The notes below the pieces were generated by a model. It saw only the letters and a list, made by a program, of their open reading frames with translations, was not told the DNA's origin and did not search any database. 64,000 nt of DNA from a candidate division FCPU426 bacterium (GTDB taxonomy: Bacteria > Oederibacteriota > JAAXVQ01 > JAUVAV01), in NCBI GenBank assembly GCA_040756875.1, contig JBFLYH010000001.1, positions 96,001-160,000 of the forward strand, in the 5' to 3' direction. How positions within the stretch are numbered: the stretch's first letter is position 1; every line of letters starts with the position of its first letter. The position numbers and the translations under genes were made by a program. Positions 11,393 through 21,285 of the stretch are shown piece after piece.

Positions 11393-11542
11393 GAGGCCTC
11401 CTTGAGGTGGAGAAATGATGTTATAGGCGAAATTATACCTTGTGCGGCCCTGGGCAGGTGTTTTTTGTGTAATAAATGCGTGCATTCCCAGTCAAATAAT
11501 TATAGAATCCGCTTTATATAACCCCCCCAGGAGGAACCCTCT

Positions 11543-12067
11543 TTGCCTCCTACTGCAATCAAGACCATCCGCGATCTGATCTTCTGGGAATACGCCAAAC
11601 TCATATCCCAATCCGCAGGCAAAGGCCGGGACAACTTTGCCTTTGTGATGTTTAAATTCAAGGAACTGCAAAGCAGGGCGATTTCCTGGTCCACGATCCT
11701 CAGGGAAGACCTCAAAACCTCCCGCGATGAATGCGCGTACTGCGGGGCCAAGTCCAACCTCAGCCACGACCACATCGTTCCCAAGCGGGAATGCCACTAC
11801 GACGAGATCCACAACATCGTGGCTGCTTGCAAGTCCTGCAATTCCTCCAAGGGGGACAAGGATTTGATCGAGTGGTATGGCCTTGACCGCCGCGCCGAAA
11901 TCCCCAGGATCGTAATGGGGAAATATCTGAAAATGCTGTACATCTGCCACGAATGCCGGGGGACATTGGCGAAGCGGGATATCAATAAGGATGGGAAGGT
12001 CGATTTGCTGGATTTGGGGTGGATATTCAAGGAGACGTGCGGGGAGAAGGGGAGTGCGCTTAAGTAA
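11543..12067 (+). CDS. HNH endonuclease with C-terminal dockerin/EF-hand-like loop
   Basis: CAYCG, DHIVP and HN.V.ACKSCNSSK motifs; DINKDGKVDLLDL; AGGAGG RBS before the TTG. Confidence 0.85.
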   Translation: MPPTAIKTIRDLIFWEYAKLISQSAGKGRDNFAFVMFKFKELQSRAISWSTILREDLKTSRDECAYCGAKSNLSHDHIVPKRECHYDEIHNIVAACKSCNSSKGDKDLIEWYGLDRRAEIPRIVMGKYLKMLYICHECRGTLAKRDINKDGKVDLLDLGWIFKETCGEKGSALK

Positions 12068-12142
12068 ATAAGTTAACTCCTGGAGTTCCCCTGATCATAG
12101 AATTCATAAAAAACGTAAGGGCGGAAAATTAGGAGGTCTAGA

Positions 12143-13015
12143 GTGAGTGAACGGCTTGAGGAAATATTTAAACTGCCAAAAGACACGCCGCCAAAAGCCC
12201 TTTACCACTACACTTCGCGAGAGGGTCTGCTGGGTATTTTAAAGGAACGGGCTATTTGGGCGACAGATATCATGTGTCTTAACGATTCGATGGAATTTAC
12301 TTATGCGGTCGAAATTGCGCGACCACTTGCACTAGAAATGATTAATAATTGTACGGATGAACAAGAGAAAAATGGATACAGAATGATAAGTAGTTTACTT
12401 GAAGAGAGGAATATAGGGCAATTCCGATCATACATTGTTTCCTTTTCAGAAGAAGGAGATTTATTAAGCCAATGGAGGGGCTATACCCGCGCAGGTGATG
12501 GTTATGCTATTGAATTTAACCCGGATATACTTGAACAACTGATTAGAACTAATATTTTGGAGAACAAGGAGTTCTATCTTGCAAAATGCAGGTATGTATT
12601 AAATGAACAGAAGAAAATTGTGGAAGAAGTACTCGAAAATGCACGAAAGATATCCAAAACTGAGGTAGAAGCAGGAATTCCAATTTATGCGGCTATCGTT
12701 AAAAATTTTCTTATTCCTTTTTTATTCATTGCACCTCTTATCAAACACCCGACCTTTAAGCAAGAACAAGAATGGCGGCTTATTGCCTTCTTAGCTGATG
12801 CGACTAACATACTTCAGTTTAAACCGGGCAAGTCAATGCTGATTCCATACATCTCCTTTAAGTTTGATGAAACGGGGTTGCCTTTTAATAAAATAATACT
12901 TGGCCCAAATCCTCATCCGGAACTTAATCGACGAGTAGTTTTGGAACTTTTAGACAAATATGGTGCTACTAATGCAGTATGCACAAGTTCTTCAATACCA
13001 TATAGGGATTGGTAA
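12143..13015 (+). CDS. DUF2971 domain protein
   Basis: LYHYTS, LND..E, SFSE.GDLLSQWRGY, K.P.F..EQEWR and I.LGP motifs; AT-rich. Confidence 0.85.
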   Translation: MSERLEEIFKLPKDTPPKALYHYTSREGLLGILKERAIWATDIMCLNDSMEFTYAVEIARPLALEMINNCTDEQEKNGYRMISSLLEERNIGQFRSYIVSFSEEGDLLSQWRGYTRAGDGYAIEFNPDILEQLIRTNILENKEFYLAKCRYVLNEQKKIVEEVLENARKISKTEVEAGIPIYAAIVKNFLIPFLFIAPLIKHPTFKQEQEWRLIAFLADATNILQFKPGKSMLIPYISFKFDETGLPFNKIILGPNPHPELNRRVVLELLDKYGATNAVCTSSSIPYRDW

Positions 13016-13109
13016 TAGAAACAAAATGGGATTAATAAATTTAAAGATGCCGTAATGAATGGGGACGGAGTGGCCCCGTTCACACGGGAGGAAGAATGAC
13101 TGATGAACC

Positions 13110-13146
13110 GGGACGTTGTTTAAATGTCAAAATGACCCGCGGCCTC
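13110..13146 (+). repeat. GGGAC hairpin repeat, copy R1
   Basis: GGGACGTTGTTTAAATGTCAAAATGACCCGCGGCCTC. Confidence 0.85.
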
Positions 13147-13148
13147 CC

Positions 13149-13184
13149 CAATTGTGCAAGAGGTGCTTGCACAAATTGCTTAGT
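13149..13184 (+). repeat. extragenic copy of the yhcG internal palindrome
   Basis: CAATTGTGCAAGAGGTGCTTGCACAAATTGCTTAGT matches 13755..13790 at 33/36 nt. Confidence 0.85.
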
Positions 13185-13405
13185 GTAAATGGGGACGTTG
13201 TTTAAATGTCAAAATGTTTACAGTGCTGATATTCACCTGACACCTCCGCCTTTTGCTGGTTGAGCTGCCGGGCTGCTTTCTGGTGTCCCTTTTCCCGCAG
13301 ATGTTTTAACGCCCAATGCCAGTCGCCTGTCCTTCACGACTTATCTCATAAAACCTTTCTCAACTGATGAAAAACGCATTGAAATCCCTCGCCACCGGTC
13401 TAATG
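13184..13405 (+). repeat. 222-bp direct repeat, copy 1 (contains R2; leader of yhcG-1)
   Basis: Two mismatches to 14789..15010 by eye alignment. Confidence 0.9.
13192..13216 (+). repeat. GGGAC hairpin repeat, copy R2
   Basis: GGGACGTTGTTTAAATGTCAAAATG, identical to the R1 core. Confidence 0.85.
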
Positions 13406-13432
13406 GATCAAGAATGTGCGAGGGGGAATATT

Positions 13433-14014
13433 ATGCCCGGCGAAAAAAGAAAGACGCACTTCCAAACCCAGCTCCATAGCCTGCCGTATGATTATGCGCA
13501 AATTCTTGCTGAGATAAAACACAGAATCCATAGTGAACGGTTGCGTGTTGCACGGGCGGCGAATTCTGCCCTGGTTATGCTGTATTGGGACATTGGCAGG
13601 TTAATACTAGGCCGCCAGAAACACGAAGGCTGGGGAACACGTGTCATAGACCGGCTTTCGGCGGATTTAAGGACGTCTTTCCCGGAAATGAATGGTTTGT
13701 CCCCGCGAAATCTTAAATATATGCGTGCGTTTGCCTCGGCATGGCCGAATAGATCAATTGTGCAAGAAGTGCTTGCACAAATTACTTGGTATCATAATCT
13801 TGCTTTGTTGGAAAAATTGAAACCATCAGAAGAAAGGCTGTGGTATGCCCGAAAAAGCCTTGATAACGGGTGGAGTCACAATATACTTGTAATTCAAATC
13901 GAAAGCGGCGCACGCGAACGGAGCGGAAAGGCGCTGCATAATTTCAAAACTACCCTGCCTGCGGAGGATTCGGATCTGGCGGGCCAGGTATTTAAGGACC
14001 CATATGGGTTTTGA
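13433..14014 (+). pseudogene. yhcG: YhcG/DUF1016 N-terminal domain only (3'-truncated, lacks the PD-(D/E)XK nuclease domain)
   Basis: Colinear with 15038..16093 up to FKDPY, then stops (FKDPYGF*). Confidence 0.75.
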
Positions 14015-14076
14015 TCGGGGCCGGAGTTAACTTGTTAACATAGCCAAGAATGGTGCCAGCCGCCATTTCTCTGTTT

Positions 14077-14115
14077 ACTGTGCGGGAAATACTTGCGCAA
14101 ATGACTTGGTACCAT
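14077..14115 (+). repeat. second, degenerate extragenic copy of the yhcG palindromic segment
   Basis: Reads TVREILAQMTWYH versus IVQEVLAQITWYH; 31/39 nt identical to 13757..13795. Confidence 0.7.
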
Positions 14116-14221
14116 GGAGATGCGGGACACTGTGTCCCTGAGATTCATTCAATCAAAACAGCAGGCGTGCTATTATGGGGAATATATTAATTATATTTAG
14201 GCACGGGCTTTATTAAATAAA

Positions 14222-14692
14222 ATGGAGATGAGAATGGAAATACAAATAGAGCCATTGTCTTCCGGAGAACAAGCTCCGCTGGATTTACTGAAGCTTGCTG
14301 ATCCATCTGAAAAAATGGTCGCTTTCTATTTAAGCCAGGGAGAGTGCTTTGTTGCTAAAGAAAGTAATGCTGTGGTGGGAGTTATTATTAGTATGAAAAC
14401 GAAGCCGGATACTTTTGAAATAATGGCCATAGCTGTAAAAACAGAGATGCAGAATAAGGGTATTGGTAAAAGGTTGATTGCTTTTGTACGGGAAAAGGTG
14501 AAAAAAACGGGCGCGAAATATTTGGAAATTGGGACAGGCAATCCCGGTGTGCAACAAATGCTGCTTTATCAAAAATGTGGTTTTAGAATAGTTGGCGTGG
14601 ATTTGGATTATTTCAGAAGAAATCACGATGAAAAAATAATGGTAAATGGCATTGAATGCCGGGATATGATTCGCATGCAAATGGAATTATAA
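14222..14692 (+). CDS. GNAT family N-acetyltransferase
   Basis: QNKGIGK acetyl-CoA motif, IGTGN, YQKCGF; the start may be 14234. Confidence 0.9.
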   Translation: MEMRMEIQIEPLSSGEQAPLDLLKLADPSEKMVAFYLSQGECFVAKESNAVVGVIISMKTKPDTFEIMAIAVKTEMQNKGIGKRLIAFVREKVKKTGAKYLEIGTGNPGVQQMLLYQKCGFRIVGVDLDYFRRNHDEKIMVNGIECRDMIRMQMEL

Positions 14693-14698
14693 AGACTA

Positions 14699-14726
14699 GG
14701 GACGTTTTTTAAATGTCAAAATGTCC
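14699..14726 (+). repeat. GGGAC hairpin repeat, copy R3
   Basis: GGGACGTTTTTTAAATGTCAAAATGTCC, 6 nt after the GNAT stop. Confidence 0.85.
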
Positions 14727-14788
14727 TGCGCTCCAATAATCACCCCCTTTACTCCTCCCTGAATACTTCTGCCCTAAATGTTAATAAT

Positions 14789-15010
14789 TGTAAATGGGGA
14801 CGTTGTTTAAATGTCAAAATGTTTACAGTGCTGATATTCACATGACACCTCCGCCTTTTGCTGGTTGAGCTGCCGGGCTGCTTTCTGGTGTCCCTTTTCC
14901 CGCAGATGTTTTAACGCCCAATGCCAGTCGCCTGTCCTTCACGACTTATCTCATAAAACCTTTCTCAACTGATGAAAAACGCATTGAAATCCCTCGCCGC
15001 CGGTCTAATG
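14789..15010 (+). repeat. 222-bp direct repeat, copy 2 (contains R4 at 14797..14821; leader of yhcG-2)
   Basis: Near-identical to 13184..13405 (offset 1605). Confidence 0.9.
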
Positions 15011-15037
15011 AATTAAAACTGTGCGGAAGGGAATTAT

Positions 15038-16093
15038 ATGCCCGGTGAAAAAGTGAAGGCGCGCTTCCATACCCAGCTCAATGGCCTGCCGTATGATTAT
15101 GCGCAAATTCTTGCTGAGATAAAACACAGAATCCAAAGCGAACGGTTGCGTGTTGTGCGGGCGGCGAATTCTGCCCTGGTCATGCTGTATTGGGACATTG
15201 GCCGCCTTATACTTGGTCGGCAGAAACATGAAGGCTGGGGAACACGCGTGATAGACCGGCTTTCGGAGGACTTGAAGGCGGTTTTTCCGGAAATGAGGGG
15301 TTTGTCCCCGAGAAACCTCAAGTATATGCGGGCTTTTGCCTTGGCCTGGTCTAATAAGGCAATTGTGCAGCAGCTTGCTGCACAATTGCCCTGGTATCAT
15401 AACTGCATGCTTTTGGAAAAAATTAATGCGATCCCCCTGCGTCTATGGTACGCCAAGATGGCGCTCACCCAAGGATGGAGCAGGAATATACTTTCACTAC
15501 AGATCGAAAGCGGTGCATACGAACGGAGCGGAAAAGCGCTGCATAATTTTAAAACTACGCTGCCGGCGGAGGATTCGGACCTGGCGAACCAAGTATTTAA
15601 AGACCCTTATTTATTTGACTTTCTCGGCATGGCTGAGCTTAAAAGAGAAAAGCAGGTCGAACAAGCTTTGGTGGATCATATTCAGAAGTTTTTGCTCGAA
15701 TTGGGCGCGGGGTTTGCTTTTGTCGGGCGGCAGGTTAGATTGGACGTTGGCGGCCAGGATTTCATCATTGACCTGCTTTTCTACCATCTTGCGCTCAGGT
15801 GTTATATCGTTATAGAACTCAAAGCCGTGCCATTTGAACCGGCGTTTGTTGGCCAAATGAACCTATACCTATCCGCTGTTGATGATCGTATGCGGCACGC
15901 GGAGGATAAGCCGACGATCGGGTTGCTGCTGTGCAAAGCAAAAAATCGCTTGATCGTGGAATATGCCCTCCGCGATTTGAAAAGGCCGATCGGTGTGGCG
16001 CGATGGGAAACGAAGATCGTCAGGTCGCTACCTAAAAAGTTTGCTGGGATACTGCCTTCGATCGAGCAGATCGAGGAGGAGTTGAAACGTTAA
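15038..16093 (+). CDS. yhcG: YhcG/DUF1016 family PD-(D/E)XK nuclease
   Basis: LYWDIG, GLSPRNLKYMRAF, KDPYLFDFL, FLLELG.GFAFVGRQ, IDLLFYH, VIELK, GQMNLY and TIGLLLC motifs. Confidence 0.92.
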   Translation: MPGEKVKARFHTQLNGLPYDYAQILAEIKHRIQSERLRVVRAANSALVMLYWDIGRLILGRQKHEGWGTRVIDRLSEDLKAVFPEMRGLSPRNLKYMRAFALAWSNKAIVQQLAAQLPWYHNCMLLEKINAIPLRLWYAKMALTQGWSRNILSLQIESGAYERSGKALHNFKTTLPAEDSDLANQVFKDPYLFDFLGMAELKREKQVEQALVDHIQKFLLELGAGFAFVGRQVRLDVGGQDFIIDLLFYHLALRCYIVIELKAVPFEPAFVGQMNLYLSAVDDRMRHAEDKPTIGLLLCKAKNRLIVEYALRDLKRPIGVARWETKIVRSLPKKFAGILPSIEQIEEELKR

Positions 16094-16164
16094 AGCCTTC
16101 GACAGTAGGTTTATACCAACCCGATTCCCCTGCCTCTCCCATACCCCGTATGCTAAAATGCCTG

Positions 16165-16192
16165 GGGACGTAGTTTGAATGTCCGGATGTCC
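16165..16192 (+). repeat. GGGAC hairpin repeat, copy R5
   Basis: GGGACGTAGTTTGAATGTCCGGATGTCC. Confidence 0.85.
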
Positions 16193-16284
16193 AGCAGTCT
16201 CTCCTGCTCTTTGTGGACTAAAAGATGTCGTATTATTTTAAGATTAAAAGGTTAAAACAGCCGATGAGCATTATAAATATACCA

Positions 16285-17112
16285 ATGAAACATCCCTTGG
16301 TATCTATTTTAGTTTTCCTAATGCTGATCTGTTTAGTCTCAATTACCCCTTCCTCTGCCCGCGACTGGCCTGAGTCCCGCACTGCGACTATCTACTCCCA
16401 AGGCGCCCGCATTCCTTATCTCCCATCCGGCGGCACGGAAAGCAAACCATCCACCTGCCAAGGCGCTTCCACGCAATTGCGGATCACCCAGGTTCTGGCA
16501 AAAATGCCCCGGCACGACGTGGACCTGGGCCGGACTACGCTGACCTTGCTTTCTTTGGATGGCAAGAAGGAGCTGCTTAAAGAGACCTTTACCGAGGTTT
16601 GGGAATGCCTGGGGTACAATCCAACCGCCAAGCGTTATGTCCTGATCACCAAGAATGAACACGGCACCAAAGTCACTTTGCGCGGCTTGGTCTATTTGGA
16701 AGAGAACCCGGCGAGGTTCAAGGATTCGGTGTTTGGAGAAAAACAGTTTGAAGCTGCGGCGTCCTTGCCCGGGCCGGATGGGAACTATCTGGCGCTGATC
16801 GGCGCTCCGGAAGGGGAAGACACCTACAAGCTGTATGTCCTGAATCTGGTCGCGGACAAACTGCAACTCCTGGGCGATGCGCCTGGCCCTCCGCCTCTGA
16901 CCAAGGAAGATTTGGAATGGCCGGAAGCCTTGGACATGATGGCAGCCTGGGAAGCGCCGGAACGGCACTACACTGAGCTGGAACCAGGCATCTGGTCCTT
17001 CACGAACCCGTCCACCCTGCAAGTCAGCTATGGCAAAGACACCTATAAAGCCCGCAATAAAAAGCGCAGCATAAAAACCTGGGATTTAAAAAGCCTGTTC
17101 AAACCAATTTAG
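16285..17112 (+). CDS. secreted hypothetical protein
   Basis: Signal peptide MKHPLVSILVFLMLICLVSITPSSA; the stop codon overlaps repeat R6. Confidence 0.7.
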   Translation: MKHPLVSILVFLMLICLVSITPSSARDWPESRTATIYSQGARIPYLPSGGTESKPSTCQGASTQLRITQVLAKMPRHDVDLGRTTLTLLSLDGKKELLKETFTEVWECLGYNPTAKRYVLITKNEHGTKVTLRGLVYLEENPARFKDSVFGEKQFEAAASLPGPDGNYLALIGAPEGEDTYKLYVLNLVADKLQLLGDAPGPPPLTKEDLEWPEALDMMAAWEAPERHYTELEPGIWSFTNPSTLQVSYGKDTYKARNKKRSIKTWDLKSLFKPI

Positions 17113-17161
17113 GGACGTTGTTTGAATGTCCGGATGTCCCGCGGCCTCGCCTTTTCTCCTC
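17112..17161 (+). repeat. GGGAC hairpin repeat, copy R6
   Basis: GGGACGTTGTTTGAATGTCCGGATGTCCCGCGGCCTCGCCTTTTCTCCTC; 44/50 identical to R7. Confidence 0.85.
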
Positions 17162-17370
17162 AAACTTGAACCCGTAAATGTTCGATTTCCTTTAAGCATG
17201 GGCGCTTCATCCCGGACCCTTTGCGAAAAAGCCGGGAAGGGGAAAAGAACCAAGGGGATTGAGGGTTGACACTGAGAGCGTAATCTTTTATTAATAGTGA
17301 AAACGGGCTGTCCTCGATATAACCTCCGAATCAAACCGGCTGGCCGTAATCAAAGCGCGCGAGGTATAGG

Positions 17371-18474
17371 ATGAGAAAAAATATCTGGGTCATGGGCATG
17401 ATCATGTGGTTGGCCCTTCCTGCCATGGGGCAGGCGGTCACCTTCGGGGAAACCGGCACTGGCACAGCCGGCAGCACGGTGAACGGTTATCTGATGCTGT
17501 GCCAATTCACCTGCCCGGCGGATGGAACCATAAACCGGATAAACTTGAGAGTTGATTATACGAACGGCAGCGGCCGGGTGGCCATTTACTCCAATGCCGG
17601 GGCCGATCAACCCGGCGTGCTGCTGGCTGAAAGCGCTTCCCAGGGCGTCAGCACCGGCTGGAACACTTTTACCGTCGCTTCTACGGCCGTGAGCAATGGA
17701 GCAACCTATTGGCTGGCCTTTCAATTGAATTCCAGCATTACCGGCGTCCGCTATTACACGGATTCAAACCTGAATAAACAGCGGTATTACAATTACGCCT
17801 ATGCCGCTTTTCCGGCCAACTTGTCCGGCAGCCCGCCCAACGGCTCCCTGGCGGCCCGGACCTGCATCTATGCCTTTGACGTCGAAACGCCGACGCCGAC
17901 GCTCACAGCTTCGGCGACCGCGACGCTCTCCGCCACCATTTCCCCCACGGCGACCATCACTCCCACTGTTACTGACACGCCCACCCTGACCTCCACGGCC
18001 ACGCCCTCGGATTCGCCGACCCGCACCGTCACCACGACCACAACGCCCACAGGCACGATCACCCCGACCGCGACCATCACCTTGACCTCCACCATCAGCC
18101 CGACTTTTACGATCAGCCCGACCGCAACCGTTTCCCCGATGGTCACGGCAACCGTGTTGCCCGCCTCCAGCCTGACCTCCACCCCGAACCTCCTGGCGGA
18201 GGTATTGTTAAACGGGAAGCAGGCGATGGTTTTCCCCAACCCCGCCCGGGATGAGGTCCGGTTCCTGGTGCATCTGGACCGGGCGGCAACCCTGCGGCTG
18301 GACCTGTTCAATTCGAACGGTGAAAGGATCGCGGGCCTGGACGCCGCTTTGCCGGCCGGCCGGGGGCAGGTCATTCAATGGGATTGCCGCGATGTGGCGC
18401 CCGGCGTATACCACGTCCGCCTGCTGAAGGACGGGCAGGCCTGGGAAAAGCTAAAAGTGGCGGTCGTAAGGTAG
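17371..18474 (+). CDS. secreted protein with long Thr/Pro linker and T9SS-like CTD
   Basis: Signal peptide; beta-sandwich N-domain (PG.LLA, YWLA); TPT/TISPT repeats; VFPNP...W...VAPGVY...KVAVVR tail. Confidence 0.8.
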   Translation: MRKNIWVMGMIMWLALPAMGQAVTFGETGTGTAGSTVNGYLMLCQFTCPADGTINRINLRVDYTNGSGRVAIYSNAGADQPGVLLAESASQGVSTGWNTFTVASTAVSNGATYWLAFQLNSSITGVRYYTDSNLNKQRYYNYAYAAFPANLSGSPPNGSLAARTCIYAFDVETPTPTLTASATATLSATISPTATITPTVTDTPTLTSTATPSDSPTRTVTTTTTPTGTITPTATITLTSTISPTFTISPTATVSPMVTATVLPASSLTSTPNLLAEVLLNGKQAMVFPNPARDEVRFLVHLDRAATLRLDLFNSNGERIAGLDAALPAGRGQVIQWDCRDVAPGVYHVRLLKDGQAWEKLKVAVVR

Positions 18475-18512
18475 AGAAACAGGGTGGTGAATAGAGACGT
18501 AGTTTCTGAATA

Positions 18513-18562
18513 GGGACCTGGTTTGAATGTCCGGATGTCCCGCGGTCTTGCCTTCTCCCCTC
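18513..18562 (+). repeat. GGGAC hairpin repeat, copy R7 (preceded by a partial copy at 18494..18505)
   Basis: GGGACCTGGTTTGAATGTCCGGATGTCCCGCGGTCTTGCC; upstream GAGACGTAGTTT. Confidence 0.8.
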
Positions 18563-18674
18563 GTGTCTAAATCGGGAACTCCGGTAGTACAAAAAATCGG
18601 GAGACACCAAGATTGAGAACAGAGTCTGTTTGCTGGTTTAGAAGAAGCGCGTGGAAATGAGCGGCGCGGGGGGA

Positions 18675-19280
18675 CTAGCTCCAGGTGAATTCGAGGACGC
18701 AATGCGATTTGCCCTGCCGGATGCATTGCAATTGCCGGGCCCGGACGCTCTCGGCGCCGGAGTATTGCAGCGCCGTGGAGACCCAGCCTTCGCAACCCAC
18801 GCAGACGGATTGTTTCCAGACCTGCGTATCGTGCATGTGATATACCACCCGTTTGTCTGCGACCTCGGCCACGCTCATGCTTCCGGGCGTGAAATAGCGT
18901 TTGAAAATAGCCGGCACCCGTTTGGCGATGAACAGGGGAGTGCCGATCTTTAAAAAAATCGTCAGGACCGTGCTGAGATCGTGAAAAGCCGAAAAAGCGG
19001 CGAGTTCCCGAAAAAGTCGGGGATCCCCGTCATTTAAGGAAGCCAGGTAGTCGTAGGTTTGAAGAAAGAGGCGGCCCGGCAAACGGGAGACAGACAGCAC
19101 CTTGTCCGAGGACCAGTACTCGGCGTCCTGCGGGGGCAGTTGGGCCAAAAAACGTTTATACGCCTCCTGGCCCAGGCTTTCTTGAAACCAATGCCTGCCC
19201 CCCAGGAGCAGGGTGGCGCGAAAAAGCGGGTCTGCCATAGGCGGCGGCTTTCCCTTCTCTGCAGTATCTGCCTTATTCAT
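18675..19280 (-). CDS. DUF2378/TIGR02265-like (V4R-fold) protein, paralogue 3
   Basis: C-terminal QCIRQGKSHCVLEFTW; FLKIGTP.F..KR...F..YF.PG. Confidence 0.6.
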   Translation of the reverse strand: MNKADTAEKGKPPPMADPLFRATLLLGGRHWFQESLGQEAYKRFLAQLPPQDAEYWSSDKVLSVSRLPGRLFLQTYDYLASLNDGDPRLFRELAAFSAFHDLSTVLTIFLKIGTPLFIAKRVPAIFKRYFTPGSMSVAEVADKRVVYHMHDTQVWKQSVCVGCEGWVSTALQYSGAESVRARQLQCIRQGKSHCVLEFTWS

Positions 19281-19387
19281 AGTAACGTACGCGCGGATGA
19301 AACTTAAACAGATAATCTTTGTTAATTATTTACGTCTCCCTTAATCCGCCTGCCCCTAAAATACACAAACCTAAATCAAATGCAGTC

Positions 19388-19873
19388 TCACCGGAGCTTA
19401 AGCAGCTTTACGATATCTCCTTCAATCTGGAGCGGCCGGACAGCCGGGGCATAGCGCTTGAACGGCTTGCCGTCCCGGCTGATCAGGAACTTGGTGAAGT
19501 TCCACTTGATCCTGCCTCCGAAGGGGCCTCCGGGCAGGGCTTTTTTCAGGTAGGCGAACACTGGGTGGGTCTTCTTGCCGTTCACGTCAATCAATCCGCT
19601 CAACTGGAAAGTCACCCCGAAATTCACTTTGCAGACCTGCACGACGGTTTTATTGGTCTCGGGTTCCTGCCCGAGAAACTGGTTGCAGGGAAACCCGAGC
19701 ACGACCAGGCCGTGGTCCTTATATTTTTGGTGCAACTGCTCAAGTTCGACGAACTGGGGGGCCAGGCCGCATTTCGTGGCTGTATTGACCACCAGCACCA
19801 CCTTGCCCTTGTACTCGCTCAGGTTTAAAGTCCTGCCGATCGTATCGCGGAAAGATAAATCGTAGAATTCCAT
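19388..19873 (-). CDS. gpx: glutathione peroxidase (Cys-type)
   Basis: GKVVLVVNTATKCG, LGFPCNQF..QEP and IKWNFTKFLI motifs. Confidence 0.95.
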   Translation of the reverse strand: MEFYDLSFRDTIGRTLNLSEYKGKVVLVVNTATKCGLAPQFVELEQLHQKYKDHGLVVLGFPCNQFLGQEPETNKTVVQVCKVNFGVTFQLSGLIDVNGKKTHPVFAYLKKALPGGPFGGRIKWNFTKFLISRDGKPFKRYAPAVRPLQIEGDIVKLLKLR

Positions 19874-19996
19874 GGTTAACACCCCGGTTGGTGATGGTTG
19901 TATGCAATAGCCTGTAATACTTGGACACCCATTATATGCCTTGGCCGTGATTTAAACCGCGTTATTCCGCCGGAAGGGTGCCGGCGTTGATAAACC

Positions 19997-20035
19997 GGGA
20001 CGTTATTTATGCGTCCGCATGACCCGTGTTTCGCC
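19997..20035 (+). repeat. GGGAC hairpin repeat, divergent copy R8
   Basis: GGGACGTTATTTATGCGTCCGCATGACCCGTGTTTCGCC. Confidence 0.7.
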
Positions 20036-20240
20036 TGCTGAAAATTAGCCGCAATTAAAGAGGAGGGGCATGGATAAGTAAATAAAAAAATGAGATACTC
20101 TGATGGAAATGCTTATATAATTATCAACGTTCCCAAGTGCTCACTAACGCAGGTATGGGTGGGCAGCCAGAACTGGCGCAAGCCGAAAGCGGCAGATCAG
20201 CGGCTTGAGGCGCTGCGATTACGCTCCGGGAGAAGAGGGC

Positions 20241-20786
20241 ATGCCTAAGAACAAAGGAACCAACTATTACTTCACCACCACCAAACTGCTCGAAAAAAGC
20301 GGCCCCAGTGCCCGGCAAAAATTCCTGGAGCAGCTGACCCCGGCGGAGCGGGCTTTTCACGAGAAGGCCCTGGAAATCAGCTGGCTGGATGCTGCCATGG
20401 TTTCCGCCAATCTGGCCAAGGCGGCCAGGATCATCTTCCCGGGCAGGGACCATCCGCTGCAGGAATGCGGCCGCCTCGAGGCGCTGGACCACCTGACCGG
20501 CATGTACCGCATCTTCTTGAGATTCGTTTCGGTCGAGATGGTGATGAAACAGGCCGCGAAAATATGGCGGCAGTACCACGACGCCGGCGCTGCCTATGTC
20601 AAGAAAACGGGTGATAAGCGCCTGATTCTCTTCGTGGAAGCATACCCCGAGCTGACCCCGGAGTTGCGGGACATCGTGGCCGGGTACTGCCAAGGGACCA
20701 TTGAACTGACCGGCGCGCGCGAAGTCGTCATTGCCATCAATGACAAAAATCCGGCGCAGTGGCAGTTCGAAGTGAGCTGGAAGTAG
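20241..20786 (+). CDS. DUF2378/TIGR02265-like protein, paralogue 4
   Basis: KNKG, ISW, LTGMYRIFLRF, KQAAKIW.QYHD.G motifs; ends VSWK. Confidence 0.65.
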   Translation: MPKNKGTNYYFTTTKLLEKSGPSARQKFLEQLTPAERAFHEKALEISWLDAAMVSANLAKAARIIFPGRDHPLQECGRLEALDHLTGMYRIFLRFVSVEMVMKQAAKIWRQYHDAGAAYVKKTGDKRLILFVEAYPELTPELRDIVAGYCQGTIELTGAREVVIAINDKNPAQWQFEVSWK

Positions 20787-20871
20787 CGCGGCGCGAGCCC
20801 GCCAGGGAGCGGAAAATCCGCTCGTTTTATGTATAGATAGGAAAACGCCACACCTAGCTTGCGAGGAACGC

Positions 20872-21285
20872 ATGGCTGCGCCCACCACCATTACAGCCCC
20901 TCTCATCGCCCCCTGCGGAATGAACTGCGCCATCTGCCTGGGGCATTTGCGCGAGAAACGCCATTGCCCGGGCTGCACTCTCCTCAACCAAACCGAAGAT
21001 GTGTATGTGCGTAAATGCGTCCTCCGCCTCTGCCAAAAGCGGGGCAAGCGGAAACACTGTTTTGCCTGCGGGGATTATCCCTGCCGCCGGCTCAAACAGC
21101 TGGACAAGCGCTACCGCCTGCGCTACGGCATGAGCATGCTCGAAAACCTGGCGTTCATCCGGGAACAGGGCATCCGGGCGTTCGTGCGGCAGGAGCGGGT
21201 CCGCTGGCAGTGCCGCAGCTGCGGAAACCTAGTGTGCGTGCACCGGGAAAACTGCCTGTCCTGCGGCGCCGCGCGGCGACCTTAG
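20872..21285 (+). CDS. DUF3795 domain Cys-rich protein
   Basis: IAPCGMNC..C, CPGC, CFACGDYPC and LDKRYR.RYGMSMLENL motifs. Confidence 0.85.
   Translation: MAAPTTITAPLIAPCGMNCAICLGHLREKRHCPGCTLLNQTEDVYVRKCVLRLCQKRGKRKHCFACGDYPCRRLKQLDKRYRLRYGMSMLENLAFIREQGIRAFVRQERVRWQCRSCGNLVCVHRENCLSCGAARRP

Follow-up and report, generated by a model that had tools for sequence, protein, structure and literature searches.

The window analysed here is a stretch of 64,000 nt from the genome of a candidate division FCPU426 bacterium (contig JBFLYH010000001.1, positions 96,001 to 160,000), and the unit under study occupies 13110..13216 of it, just upstream of a truncated gene of the YhcG/DUF1016 nuclease family. 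Two repeats, R1 and R2, here enclose a short spacer that contains a stray copy, which we call the orphan, of a palindrome otherwise situated inside the coding sequence of yhcG genes. The palindrome turned out to be common to YhcG genes of many phyla, to recur as loose copies beside some of them and to coincide with breakpoints in E. coli, and we consider the orphan to be probably a remnant of rearrangement rather than a functional unit. Positions without further label are those of the window.

Anatomy of the R1-R2 unit

R1 (13110..13134, +) and R2 (13192-13216) have the same 25-nt core and enclose 57 nt, as a preliminary description of the locus had claimed, and the second pair reported there was recovered as well, R3 (14699-14723) with one mismatch and R4 (14797-14821) with none, separated by 73 nt. 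At ≤3 mismatches the repeat gave four matches, compared with none in 100 shuffles. The R1-R2 spacer falls into three parts. The first 14 nt (ACCCGCGGCCTCCC) are the tail of the long form of the repeat, which extends over ~13105-13148 in R1 and belongs to a genome-wide family; this long form is also seen at 17110 and 18511. Then follows the 36-nt orphan (13149..13184, +), composed of TTGTGCAAG-AGGTG-CTTGCACAA plus AATT arms and 6 nt matching yhcG codons. The last 7 nt (GTAAATG) form, together with R2 (13185..13216, +), the opening of a duplicated module of repeat, leader and yhcG that starts at 13184. Because the repeat tail and the module opening fill the remainder of the spacer, the yhcG piece sits exactly between two junctions with repeat DNA.

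The orphan and yhcG-1 (13149-13184 versus 13755-13790) agree at 33 of 36 positions (92%), as previously stated, and this likeness ends abruptly on both sides, at 13148/13149 and 13184/13185. When the orphan was compared with the whole 3.2-Mb genome (blastn-short), it matched yhcG-1 at 28/29 positions (E 1.2e-7), and no further genomic copy of the 36-nt piece was found in this search. Two of the earlier claims stood only in part. The flanks of the copied palindrome are indeed unrelated to yhcG, but 6 nt on its 3′ side are shared too, so that not only the palindrome was copied. Likewise, the palindrome of yhcG-1 is the nearest to the orphan among the 82 described below, yet the source need not be yhcG-1, because 'VQEVLAQ'-type palindromes from other phyla still score 29-31/36. 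The spacer between R3 and R4 is unrelated, as had been noted, with no likeness to the palindrome on alignment.

The predicted fold of the orphan has a free energy of -9.8 kcal/mol (z-score -2.3). A contig made by a second assembler, probably from the source run, covers 13108-13213 at a depth of 54 with 46-57 in the flanks. The unit is therefore no artefact of this particular assembly, with the restriction that both contigs derive from the same sample and are not independent. A partial repeat start (AATGGGGACG) with a small hairpin is located at 13061-13100, 48 nt before R1, and nested partial copies of this kind precede several other genomic copies of the repeat.

A palindrome kept inside YhcG genes

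YhcG genes carry a co-varying palindrome that is a property of the whole family. We compiled 80 loci with relatives 52-67% identical to yhcG-2, the intact yhcG gene of the window, which span Latescibacterota, Acidobacteriota, Spirochaetia, Planctomycetota, Bacillota, Proteobacteria, Elusimicrobiota and others; together with both genes of the window they make a set of 82 genes. At most of the 80 loci the longest perfect inverted repeat of the gene, with 6-15 bp per arm and a loop of 3-5 nt, falls on the same codons, and across the set of 82 the palindrome is located at the codons VQxxxAQ of the N-domain. In yhcG-2 (15358..15390, +; codons AIVQQLAAQLP) it has perfect 15-bp arms and a 3-nt loop, with a predicted fold of -18.9 kcal/mol (z-score -6.0) that none of 200 shuffles equalled, and in yhcG-1 (13755..13790, +; codons IVQEVLAQITW) the stem comprises 9+4 bp. 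The yhcG gene of E. coli K-12, a distant member of the family, also has a perfect palindrome with 15-bp arms at the homologous codons.

Pairing was evaluated on a 57-nt alignment of the 82 sequences, 68 of which are distinct. For 15 pairs, 79.8% of the cells were paired, compared with 31-37% when the partners were slid against each other, and changes on both sides of a pair were observed in 69 cells versus 29 ± 5.5 in shuffles, a number that none of the 500 shuffles reached. Among the ten inner pairs, G-T combinations accounted for only 6 cells and other mismatches for 50. G-T pairs are thus not favoured, which points to DNA symmetry or templated copying rather than to an RNA hairpin. The encoded residues vary along with the DNA (VQRxVAQ, VQQAAAQ or VQEVLAQ; AI...LP versus EF...IP), and synonymous sites within the palindrome are fixed: valine is encoded by GTG in 65/65 cases (34% elsewhere in the same genes), alanine by GCA in 65/68 (17%) and glutamine by CAA in 64/65 (34%), in genes that range from 36% to 66% GC.

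At the level of titles and the openings of abstracts, we found no description of a palindrome in YhcG/DUF1016 genes among the papers listed by our literature searches. A study from 2019 (PMC6649704) deals with perfect inverted repeats inside coding sequences, with both arms encoding conserved residues, and shares with the present case the compromise of protein function with DNA symmetry. The repeats in the part of that study used here are many and long (up to 284 bp) and occur in several genes of one organelle lineage, whereas the YhcG palindrome is a single short element (~23-33 nt), which occupies a fixed place in one gene family of bacteria from many phyla and also has extragenic copies.

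Loose copies beside other yhcG genes

A motif scan over the 80 loci and the window stretch (81 sequences, 629 kb) returned 33 palindromes inside yhcG genes and 12 outside, while shuffles yielded 0-3 matches in total; the window orphan itself is too imperfect for the filter used. Extragenic palindromes that match the internal one are thus enriched near DUF1016 genes, and the refutation envisaged in the preliminary description, a lack of such enrichment, does not hold against the operator that would be bound by the DUF1016 N-domain.

Such orphans were also found next to yhcG in four further lineages and in E. coli. At L041 (Vicinamibacterales) two intergenic copies lie just upstream of yhcG, and L019 (Pirellulales) has one upstream copy in which both arms have changed together (GTGAAAC...GTTTCAC). 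At L056 (Latescibacterota) the orphan has on one side a 54-nt copy of the beginning of the zeta-like gene that lies downstream, and on the other a PIN gene; this patchwork replaces the hsdM gene found upstream of yhcG in the related locus L062 (L056:3388-3884 versus L062:1698-3884). This orphan is of another palindrome type, and the likely start codon of the PIN gene falls inside it. A palindrome of the YhcG type is found at or just after the yhcG stop codon at 18 of 79 loci, all of them Bacillota, and perhaps these go back to one or two origins only. At L024, L035, L043, L044, L047, L050, L059, L083 and L084 (Bacillota) a palindrome with arms of 12-14 bp begins with the TAA stop codon of yhcG itself, and several of the genes with stop-codon palindromes adjoin genes of large serine recombinases. 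Nine neighbouring ORFs with serine-recombinase domains had suggested a reading of these palindromes as attachment (att) sites of serine recombinases; the odd number of nucleotides in the site and the absence of the pattern in other phyla speak against it.

In E. coli K-12, a related palindrome follows 16 nt after the yhcG stop codon and has the inner arms GCAGAC/GTCTGC in common with the internal copy. E. coli M24, which lacks the whole yhcA-yhcG stretch, retains one orphan palindrome (L103:1457-1483) in the 68-nt spacer between gltD and nanQ. The allele of E. coli PEC1021 (L102:730-791) contains two in-frame tandem palindromes that differ in their arms and share the same centre (CAGAC-NNN-GTCTG).

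Breakpoints at the palindrome

Breakpoints in E. coli were read from a sample of 40 rows spread over 5415 records. In one variant, the end of the insertion sequence IS1 abuts the left arm of the internal palindrome. In another class, represented by at least five of the sampled genomes, the likeness to K-12 is lost 4 nt before the end of the palindrome; 470 nt of other DNA follow, and K-12-like sequence resumes 18 nt beyond the downstream palindrome. These cases are suggestive of the palindrome as a favoured break site and do not amount to a statistic. Among relatives, 7 of 14 partial DUF1016_N matches have an end at positions 77-97 of the hidden Markov model, which is the site of the palindrome; contig ends may be included in this number and we do not count it as evidence. 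Shorter YhcG proteins gave 3561 matches, and among the 120 matches listed most are C-terminal pieces from short contigs, which are uninformative on ends at the palindrome.

R1 and R2 as members of a REP-like family

R1 and R2 are two of ~27 copies of a genome-specific repeat with a core of ~30 nt. Genome-wide, its 19-nt core had 31 matches at ≤4 mismatches, of which 27 were kept, in about seven clusters; the other four, situated in GC-rich coding DNA and lacking the 3′ extension, were discarded by eye. At ≤1 mismatch the core occurs 18 times in this genome, once each in two of 40 relatives (the same-genus genome and one genome of the same family) and in none of the other 38. The reversed 19-nt pattern, used as control, gave no match, and an exact search for a 25-nt degenerate version of the repeat in a wider contig collection, from which records of the own genome were possibly excluded, returned none either. 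The window holds eight copies, all on the + strand and located between open reading frames (ORFs) or at their ends, which follow almost every gene between 13.1 and 20.0 kb. In addition to R1 to R4, they comprise a copy after yhcG-2 (16165..16183, +), one abutting the stop codon of the ORF at 16225-17112 (17112..17130, +), one at 18513..18531 (+) and a divergent one with four mismatches at the end of the low-GC island (19997..20015, +). Genome-wide, close neighbours are in direct orientation, at distances of 82, 98, 81 and 86 nt. The remaining clusters likewise occupy accessory DNA of low GC content, in the company of genes for toxin-antitoxin pairs, a type I restriction system, reverse transcriptases and Fic. 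Beside a type I restriction operon (C2:398517-398770; L008:13518-13770), three R units stand in tandem, 81 and 86 nt apart, with mutually related spacers that contain a conserved small hairpin (CCCTGCACCGCAGGG).

Two genes of the genome score above the Pfam cut-off for Y1_Tnp (IS200-like, HUH). The first is an ORF of 336 aa (C1:1033649-1034659; L005:4650-5660, -) on the same contig as R1 and R2, ~0.9 Mb away from them. The motifs HVHLLL (HUH) and FQNRY (Y) were recognised in it by eye, and its residues 3-135 of 336 match the NCBIfam model NF047646, 'REP-associated tyrosine transposase' (REP, repetitive extragenic palindromic), with 79.8 bits at a cut-off of 80. Inverted R copies flank this gene at C1:1033667(+) and C1:1034713(-) (L005 4668(+) and 5714(-)), one overlapping its 3′ end and the inverted one lying 54 nt before its start. 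The second gene, 6 kb away (C1:1039783-1040793; L098:1284-2294, -), also encodes 336 aa, 42% identical to the first, and has on either side, again in inverted orientation, a member of a second repeat family (GGCCGGAGTTAACTTRTTAAC), which is present in 10 copies in the genome. Both proteins have a C-terminal extension of ~190 aa with a weak match to a DnaA-domain-IV-like segment (E 2e-4).

Systems of REPs and REP-associated tyrosine transposases (RAYTs) are recognised by such a transposase gene flanked by its own repeats (PMC3337134), and because this arrangement is found around the Y1 gene, we assign the repeats to the REP/RAYT kind. Judged from the sequence, R1 and R2 are same-direction copies of a REP-like family, for which the distant RAYT-type gene is the putative cognate. 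Several features agree with the systems of Pseudomonas fluorescens SBW25 and E. coli as outlined by Bertels and Rainey (PMC3337134), namely short extragenic repeats specific to one genome, an HUH Y1 gene between inverted copies of its own repeat, and two paralogous transposase genes, each with its own repeat family. In contrast to the systems in that outline, the families considered here have only ~27 and 10 copies, a weak hairpin and no inverted doublets (REPINs) that we could see, the copies are limited to low-GC accessory islands, and the palindrome in the R1-R2 spacer is no REP. The transposase, at 336 aa with its C-terminal extension, also differs from the typical RAYT genes of ~500 bp given there.

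The yhcG array and its low-GC island

The module of repeat, 215-nt leader and yhcG is present twice in the window. The leader common to both modules, as defined by alignment, extends over 13217..13433 (+) in the first, and the leader stretches 13203-13382 and 14808-14987 differ at one position in 180 nt. The coding parts of yhcG-1 and yhcG-2 are 53-95% alike in 30-nt steps, and the stretch of the palindrome is the least alike. Near-identical leaders combined with divergent coding parts are a sign of recent copying between the paralogs, from which the palindrome stretch was spared.

The first gene, yhcG-1 (13367..14014, +), is truncated and encodes the DUF1016 N-domain only (Pfam PF17761), its likeness to yhcG-2 stopping at 14005. 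Just past this cut-off point lies a copy of the second repeat family (GGCCGGAGTTAACTTGTTAAC; 14019..14039, +), the family that flanks the second RAYT gene. Sixty bases past the end of yhcG-1 begins a second, decayed yhcG relic from the same codons as the orphan (VREILAQMTWYH; 14075..14118, +), in which the good palindrome is lost. This relic is 67% identical to the orphan over 36 nt and matches yhcG-1 at 27/36 positions; the tblastn match (10/15, E 2.0) is weak on its own. Further downstream follow R3, its 73-nt C/T-rich spacer and R4 (14699..14821, +). The spacer resembles the tails after other copies of the repeat, and the comparison with phages and plasmids that had been proposed for it gave no match. 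The intact gene yhcG-2 (15038..16093, +) is a full member of the YhcG/DUF1016 family (PF17761 plus PF06250), of which yhcG-1 is an N-domain fragment. It encodes the DUF1016_N domain (E 3.8e-42) and the YhcG_C domain of the PD-(D/E)XK nucleases (E 1.4e-62), and corresponds to PDC-S02 of PADLOC (E 1.6e-147), the single-gene defence candidate that represents YhcG there.

The order in the island is thus orphan, truncated yhcG-1, decayed relic, a GNAT gene and intact yhcG-2, in DNA that has a G+C content of 36-50% between ~12 and 16.5 kb compared with 60% for the window, and the island reads as the remains of several yhcG paralogs. Both relics retain the same ~40 nt of a 1056-nt gene, an outcome that would rarely be expected from random decay.

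Two mutually inverted members of the second repeat family (12061-12085 and 14019-14039) bracket a DUF2971 gene, the R1-orphan-R2 unit and truncated yhcG-1; the former copy overlaps the stop codon of an HNH endonuclease gene, and the outer ends of the pair face away from the bracketed segment. The HNH gene (11543-12067), with weak PADLOC matches to PtuB and PDC-M01B, opens the low-GC island together with the DUF2971 gene (12143-13015), which has weak matches to PDC-S31; a DUF2971 gene also adjoins yhcG at locus L034. DNA-level synteny with four relatives gave no usable match around the island.

Genomic context and predicted structure of YhcG

At the 80 loci, 143 of 147 picked flanking ORFs were scanned. 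Fourteen of the 143 encode an HsdM-type methylase immediately upstream, eight encode HsdS, six zeta-like kinases, and nine have serine-recombinase domains. The HsdM and HsdS neighbours agree with a report that DUF1016 genes are enriched in restriction loci, often type I restriction operons (PMC9881135), whereas the genes of the window lie in a REP-punctuated island. Within the phylum of the window, yhcG is patchy and often multi-copy, with the gene present in 20 of 41 genomes; in the same-genus genome no yhcG was found.

The AlphaFold model of yhcG-2, built on 38 sequences, has a mean predicted local distance difference test (pLDDT) score of 65, with a confident, all-helical N-domain and a poor C-domain. 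According to this model, the palindrome would encode a short helix and the following loop (residues 107-118). A Foldseek search against the PDB gave no match at E ≤ 0.001, the best being PD-(D/E)XK nucleases (NucS/EndoMS, Cas4, Hjc), and no match that names a DNA-binding fold for the N-domain; the search of PDB sequences with YhcG returned 0 matches.

Origin of the orphan palindrome

The explanation that we prefer, and hold to be somewhat more probable than all others together, is that the orphan is a leftover of rearrangement, the fossil of a lost yhcG paralog in a REP-punctuated array, with the hairpin-prone palindrome as the point of breakage or copying. The palindrome would form a hairpin on single-stranded DNA during replication, and stalls, breaks or template switches would arise at the edges of this hairpin. 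Rearrangements would therefore tend to end at the palindrome or to copy just the palindrome. Arm-to-arm copying would keep the palindrome symmetric, and the same copying would explain its strict Watson-Crick symmetry. The orphan would then have no dedicated function at this place. The template-switch hotspots of E. coli quasipalindromes (PMC7202029) offer a parallel, sharing an inverted repeat that forms a hairpin in replication and is prone to mutation and rearrangement, as well as templated copying from arm to arm, which leaves the arms alike without wobble pairs. In the portion of that work relied on here, they are mutational hotspots in reporter genes, with no orphan copies beside a gene described, whereas the YhcG palindrome is retained in many phyla at a single codon position of a gene family.

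Of the possibilities raised in the preliminary description, a scar left where the hairpin-prone palindrome was rearranged, ascribed there to a putative hairpin-recognising recombinase that cuts at it, fits best. The scar itself agrees with the junctions to repeat sequence on both sides of the orphan, with the relic at 14075-14118 and with the E. coli breakpoints at the homologous palindrome, but nothing shows a recombinase cutting there; the genome does encode an HUH Y1/RAYT transposase, but the repeats of this enzyme are R1 and R2 and not the palindrome.

Several points weigh against our explanation. The hairpin, stalling and template-switch steps are inferred from the published work on quasipalindromes and none of them was observed. 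For an orphan whose neighbouring DNA is unrelated on either side, two junctions have to fall within ~40 nt, which is awkward for a simple deletion, and the breakpoints at the palindrome make up two of ~6 kinds of truncation, for a 33-nt target in a 1.1-kb gene, a small count. The orphans elsewhere stay palindromic, including the two-sided change in L019, which would fit a maintained site equally well. The inner arms of extragenic copies are often the same as those of the internal palindrome at their locus (GCAGAC in E. coli, two groups of Bacillota, and the 33/36 of the window), and the two could be cooperating sites. Regarding the repeats, the match to NF047646 falls 0.2 bits short of the cut-off, the predicted R fold (a 6-7-bp stem, GGACGTT...AATGTCC; z-scores -1.2 to +1.4) is no better than those of shuffles, inverted doublets are lacking among the genomic copies except for the pair around the transposase gene, and 27 copies are few for a REP family.

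The retained symmetry and the matching inner arms also speak for a different reading, less probable in our judgement and still deserving of some weight, in which the orphan works as a partner site. The palindrome of YhcG genes would be recognised by a symmetric protein, most simply the N-domain of YhcG, or as a hairpin, and the orphan might, for instance, act together with the internal copy in self-repression by roadblock or looping, or mark a substrate for the nuclease. The enrichment of extragenic copies next to yhcG in at least five lineages and E. coli, the synonymous sites fixed across phyla, the intergenic position of the L041 orphans just upstream of yhcG and the location of the L056 orphan upstream of a PIN-yhcG pair are all in line with such a site. 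Difficult to reconcile with it is the symmetry up to the 3-nt loop (pairs 24-32, 25-31 and 26-30), a feature seen more often with hairpins or templated copying than with dimer-binding sites, and the orphans also vary in position, from ~100-500 nt upstream to the stop codon and 700 nt downstream. In the window, moreover, the partner gene yhcG-1 is truncated, no orphan accompanies the intact yhcG-2, whose leader is the same, and symmetry has been lost from the second relic (14075-14118). The orphan type differs from the internal type in L041 and L056, and the structural predictions suggest a helical N-domain only, for which Foldseek named no DNA-binding fold. In a more far-reaching form, which we regard as rather unlikely, the palindrome would be a cis-acting element recognised by YhcG itself, be it as a symmetric duplex or as an extruded hairpin, and carried along within the gene, with loose copies such as 13149-13184 as its working partners. 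The pair of internal and loose copy would then set expression or license cutting and recombination, and the proneness to breakage would be a by-product of an enzyme acting on its own sites.

The layout of the island also recalls an integron-like cassette array without integrase, in which the repeats would be of attC type and R1-orphan-R2 a nearly empty cassette. Over 8 kb of mixed and low GC, every gene is followed by one equally oriented repeat, the gene content is cassette-like (GNAT and DUF genes here, toxin-antitoxin pairs at other clusters) and partial nested copies adjoin several repeats. We nevertheless consider this very unlikely. No integron integrase or resolvase was found in the genome, only two Xer-like tyrosine recombinases, and the best score for TIGR02249 was 85.7 bits, where the cut-off is 265; the genome is rated 100% complete. 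Integron arrays without integrase exist, so the missing integrase alone does not exclude attC sites, but the repeats are not long imperfect palindromes, their folds are weak, the RYYYAAC...GTTRRRY boxes could not be placed by eye, and attC sites leave unexplained why the same repeat flanks the RAYT gene in inverted pairs. Hardly credible is the suggestion, also made in the preliminary description, of a captured mini-cassette or guide RNA, that is, a mini-array resembling clustered regularly interspaced short palindromic repeats (CRISPR), or a captured spacer, that would serve the neighbouring PD-(D/E)XK nuclease. Beyond the sequence of repeat, spacer and repeat beside a nuclease gene, it can draw on a CRISPR-associated PD-DExK model among the weaker PADLOC matches of yhcG-2. 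It fails on the repeats, which are mostly dispersed REP-like singlets at irregular spacing and form units of two at most in such a layout, on the lack of Cas1 in the same genome, and on Rfam, which gave no family on 11500-21000 except for a match at chance level (E 0.83). The R1-R2 spacer, finally, is self DNA of a kind that occurs beside yhcG genes without these repeats, and the R3-R4 spacer has no counterpart in phages or plasmids.

Implications for the YhcG family

The locus itself is most likely a relic, and it is a further indication that copying and breakage treat the palindrome as a unit. A repeat-spacer-repeat layout next to a nuclease gene suggests a guide or capture system; in this case it resolves into REP-type repeats with a transposase gene of their own and a stray palindrome, which guards against over-reading such layouts, and the stray copy provides a clean case of the palindrome-only copies that occur beside YhcG/DUF1016 genes and at rearrangement junctions. 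The genome, from an uncultured candidate division, further offers two matched pairs of RAYT and repeat, the transposase being unusually long. YhcG genes, a family common in restriction operons and defence islands, keep the coding palindrome at the cost of codon and even residue choice, and this includes yhcG of E. coli K-12. Such evidence on the palindrome makes YhcG function testable in E. coli K-12, and whether it is a substrate of the enzyme, a control site or a self-perpetuating fragile site, the palindrome is an experimental handle on a gene family of unknown function.

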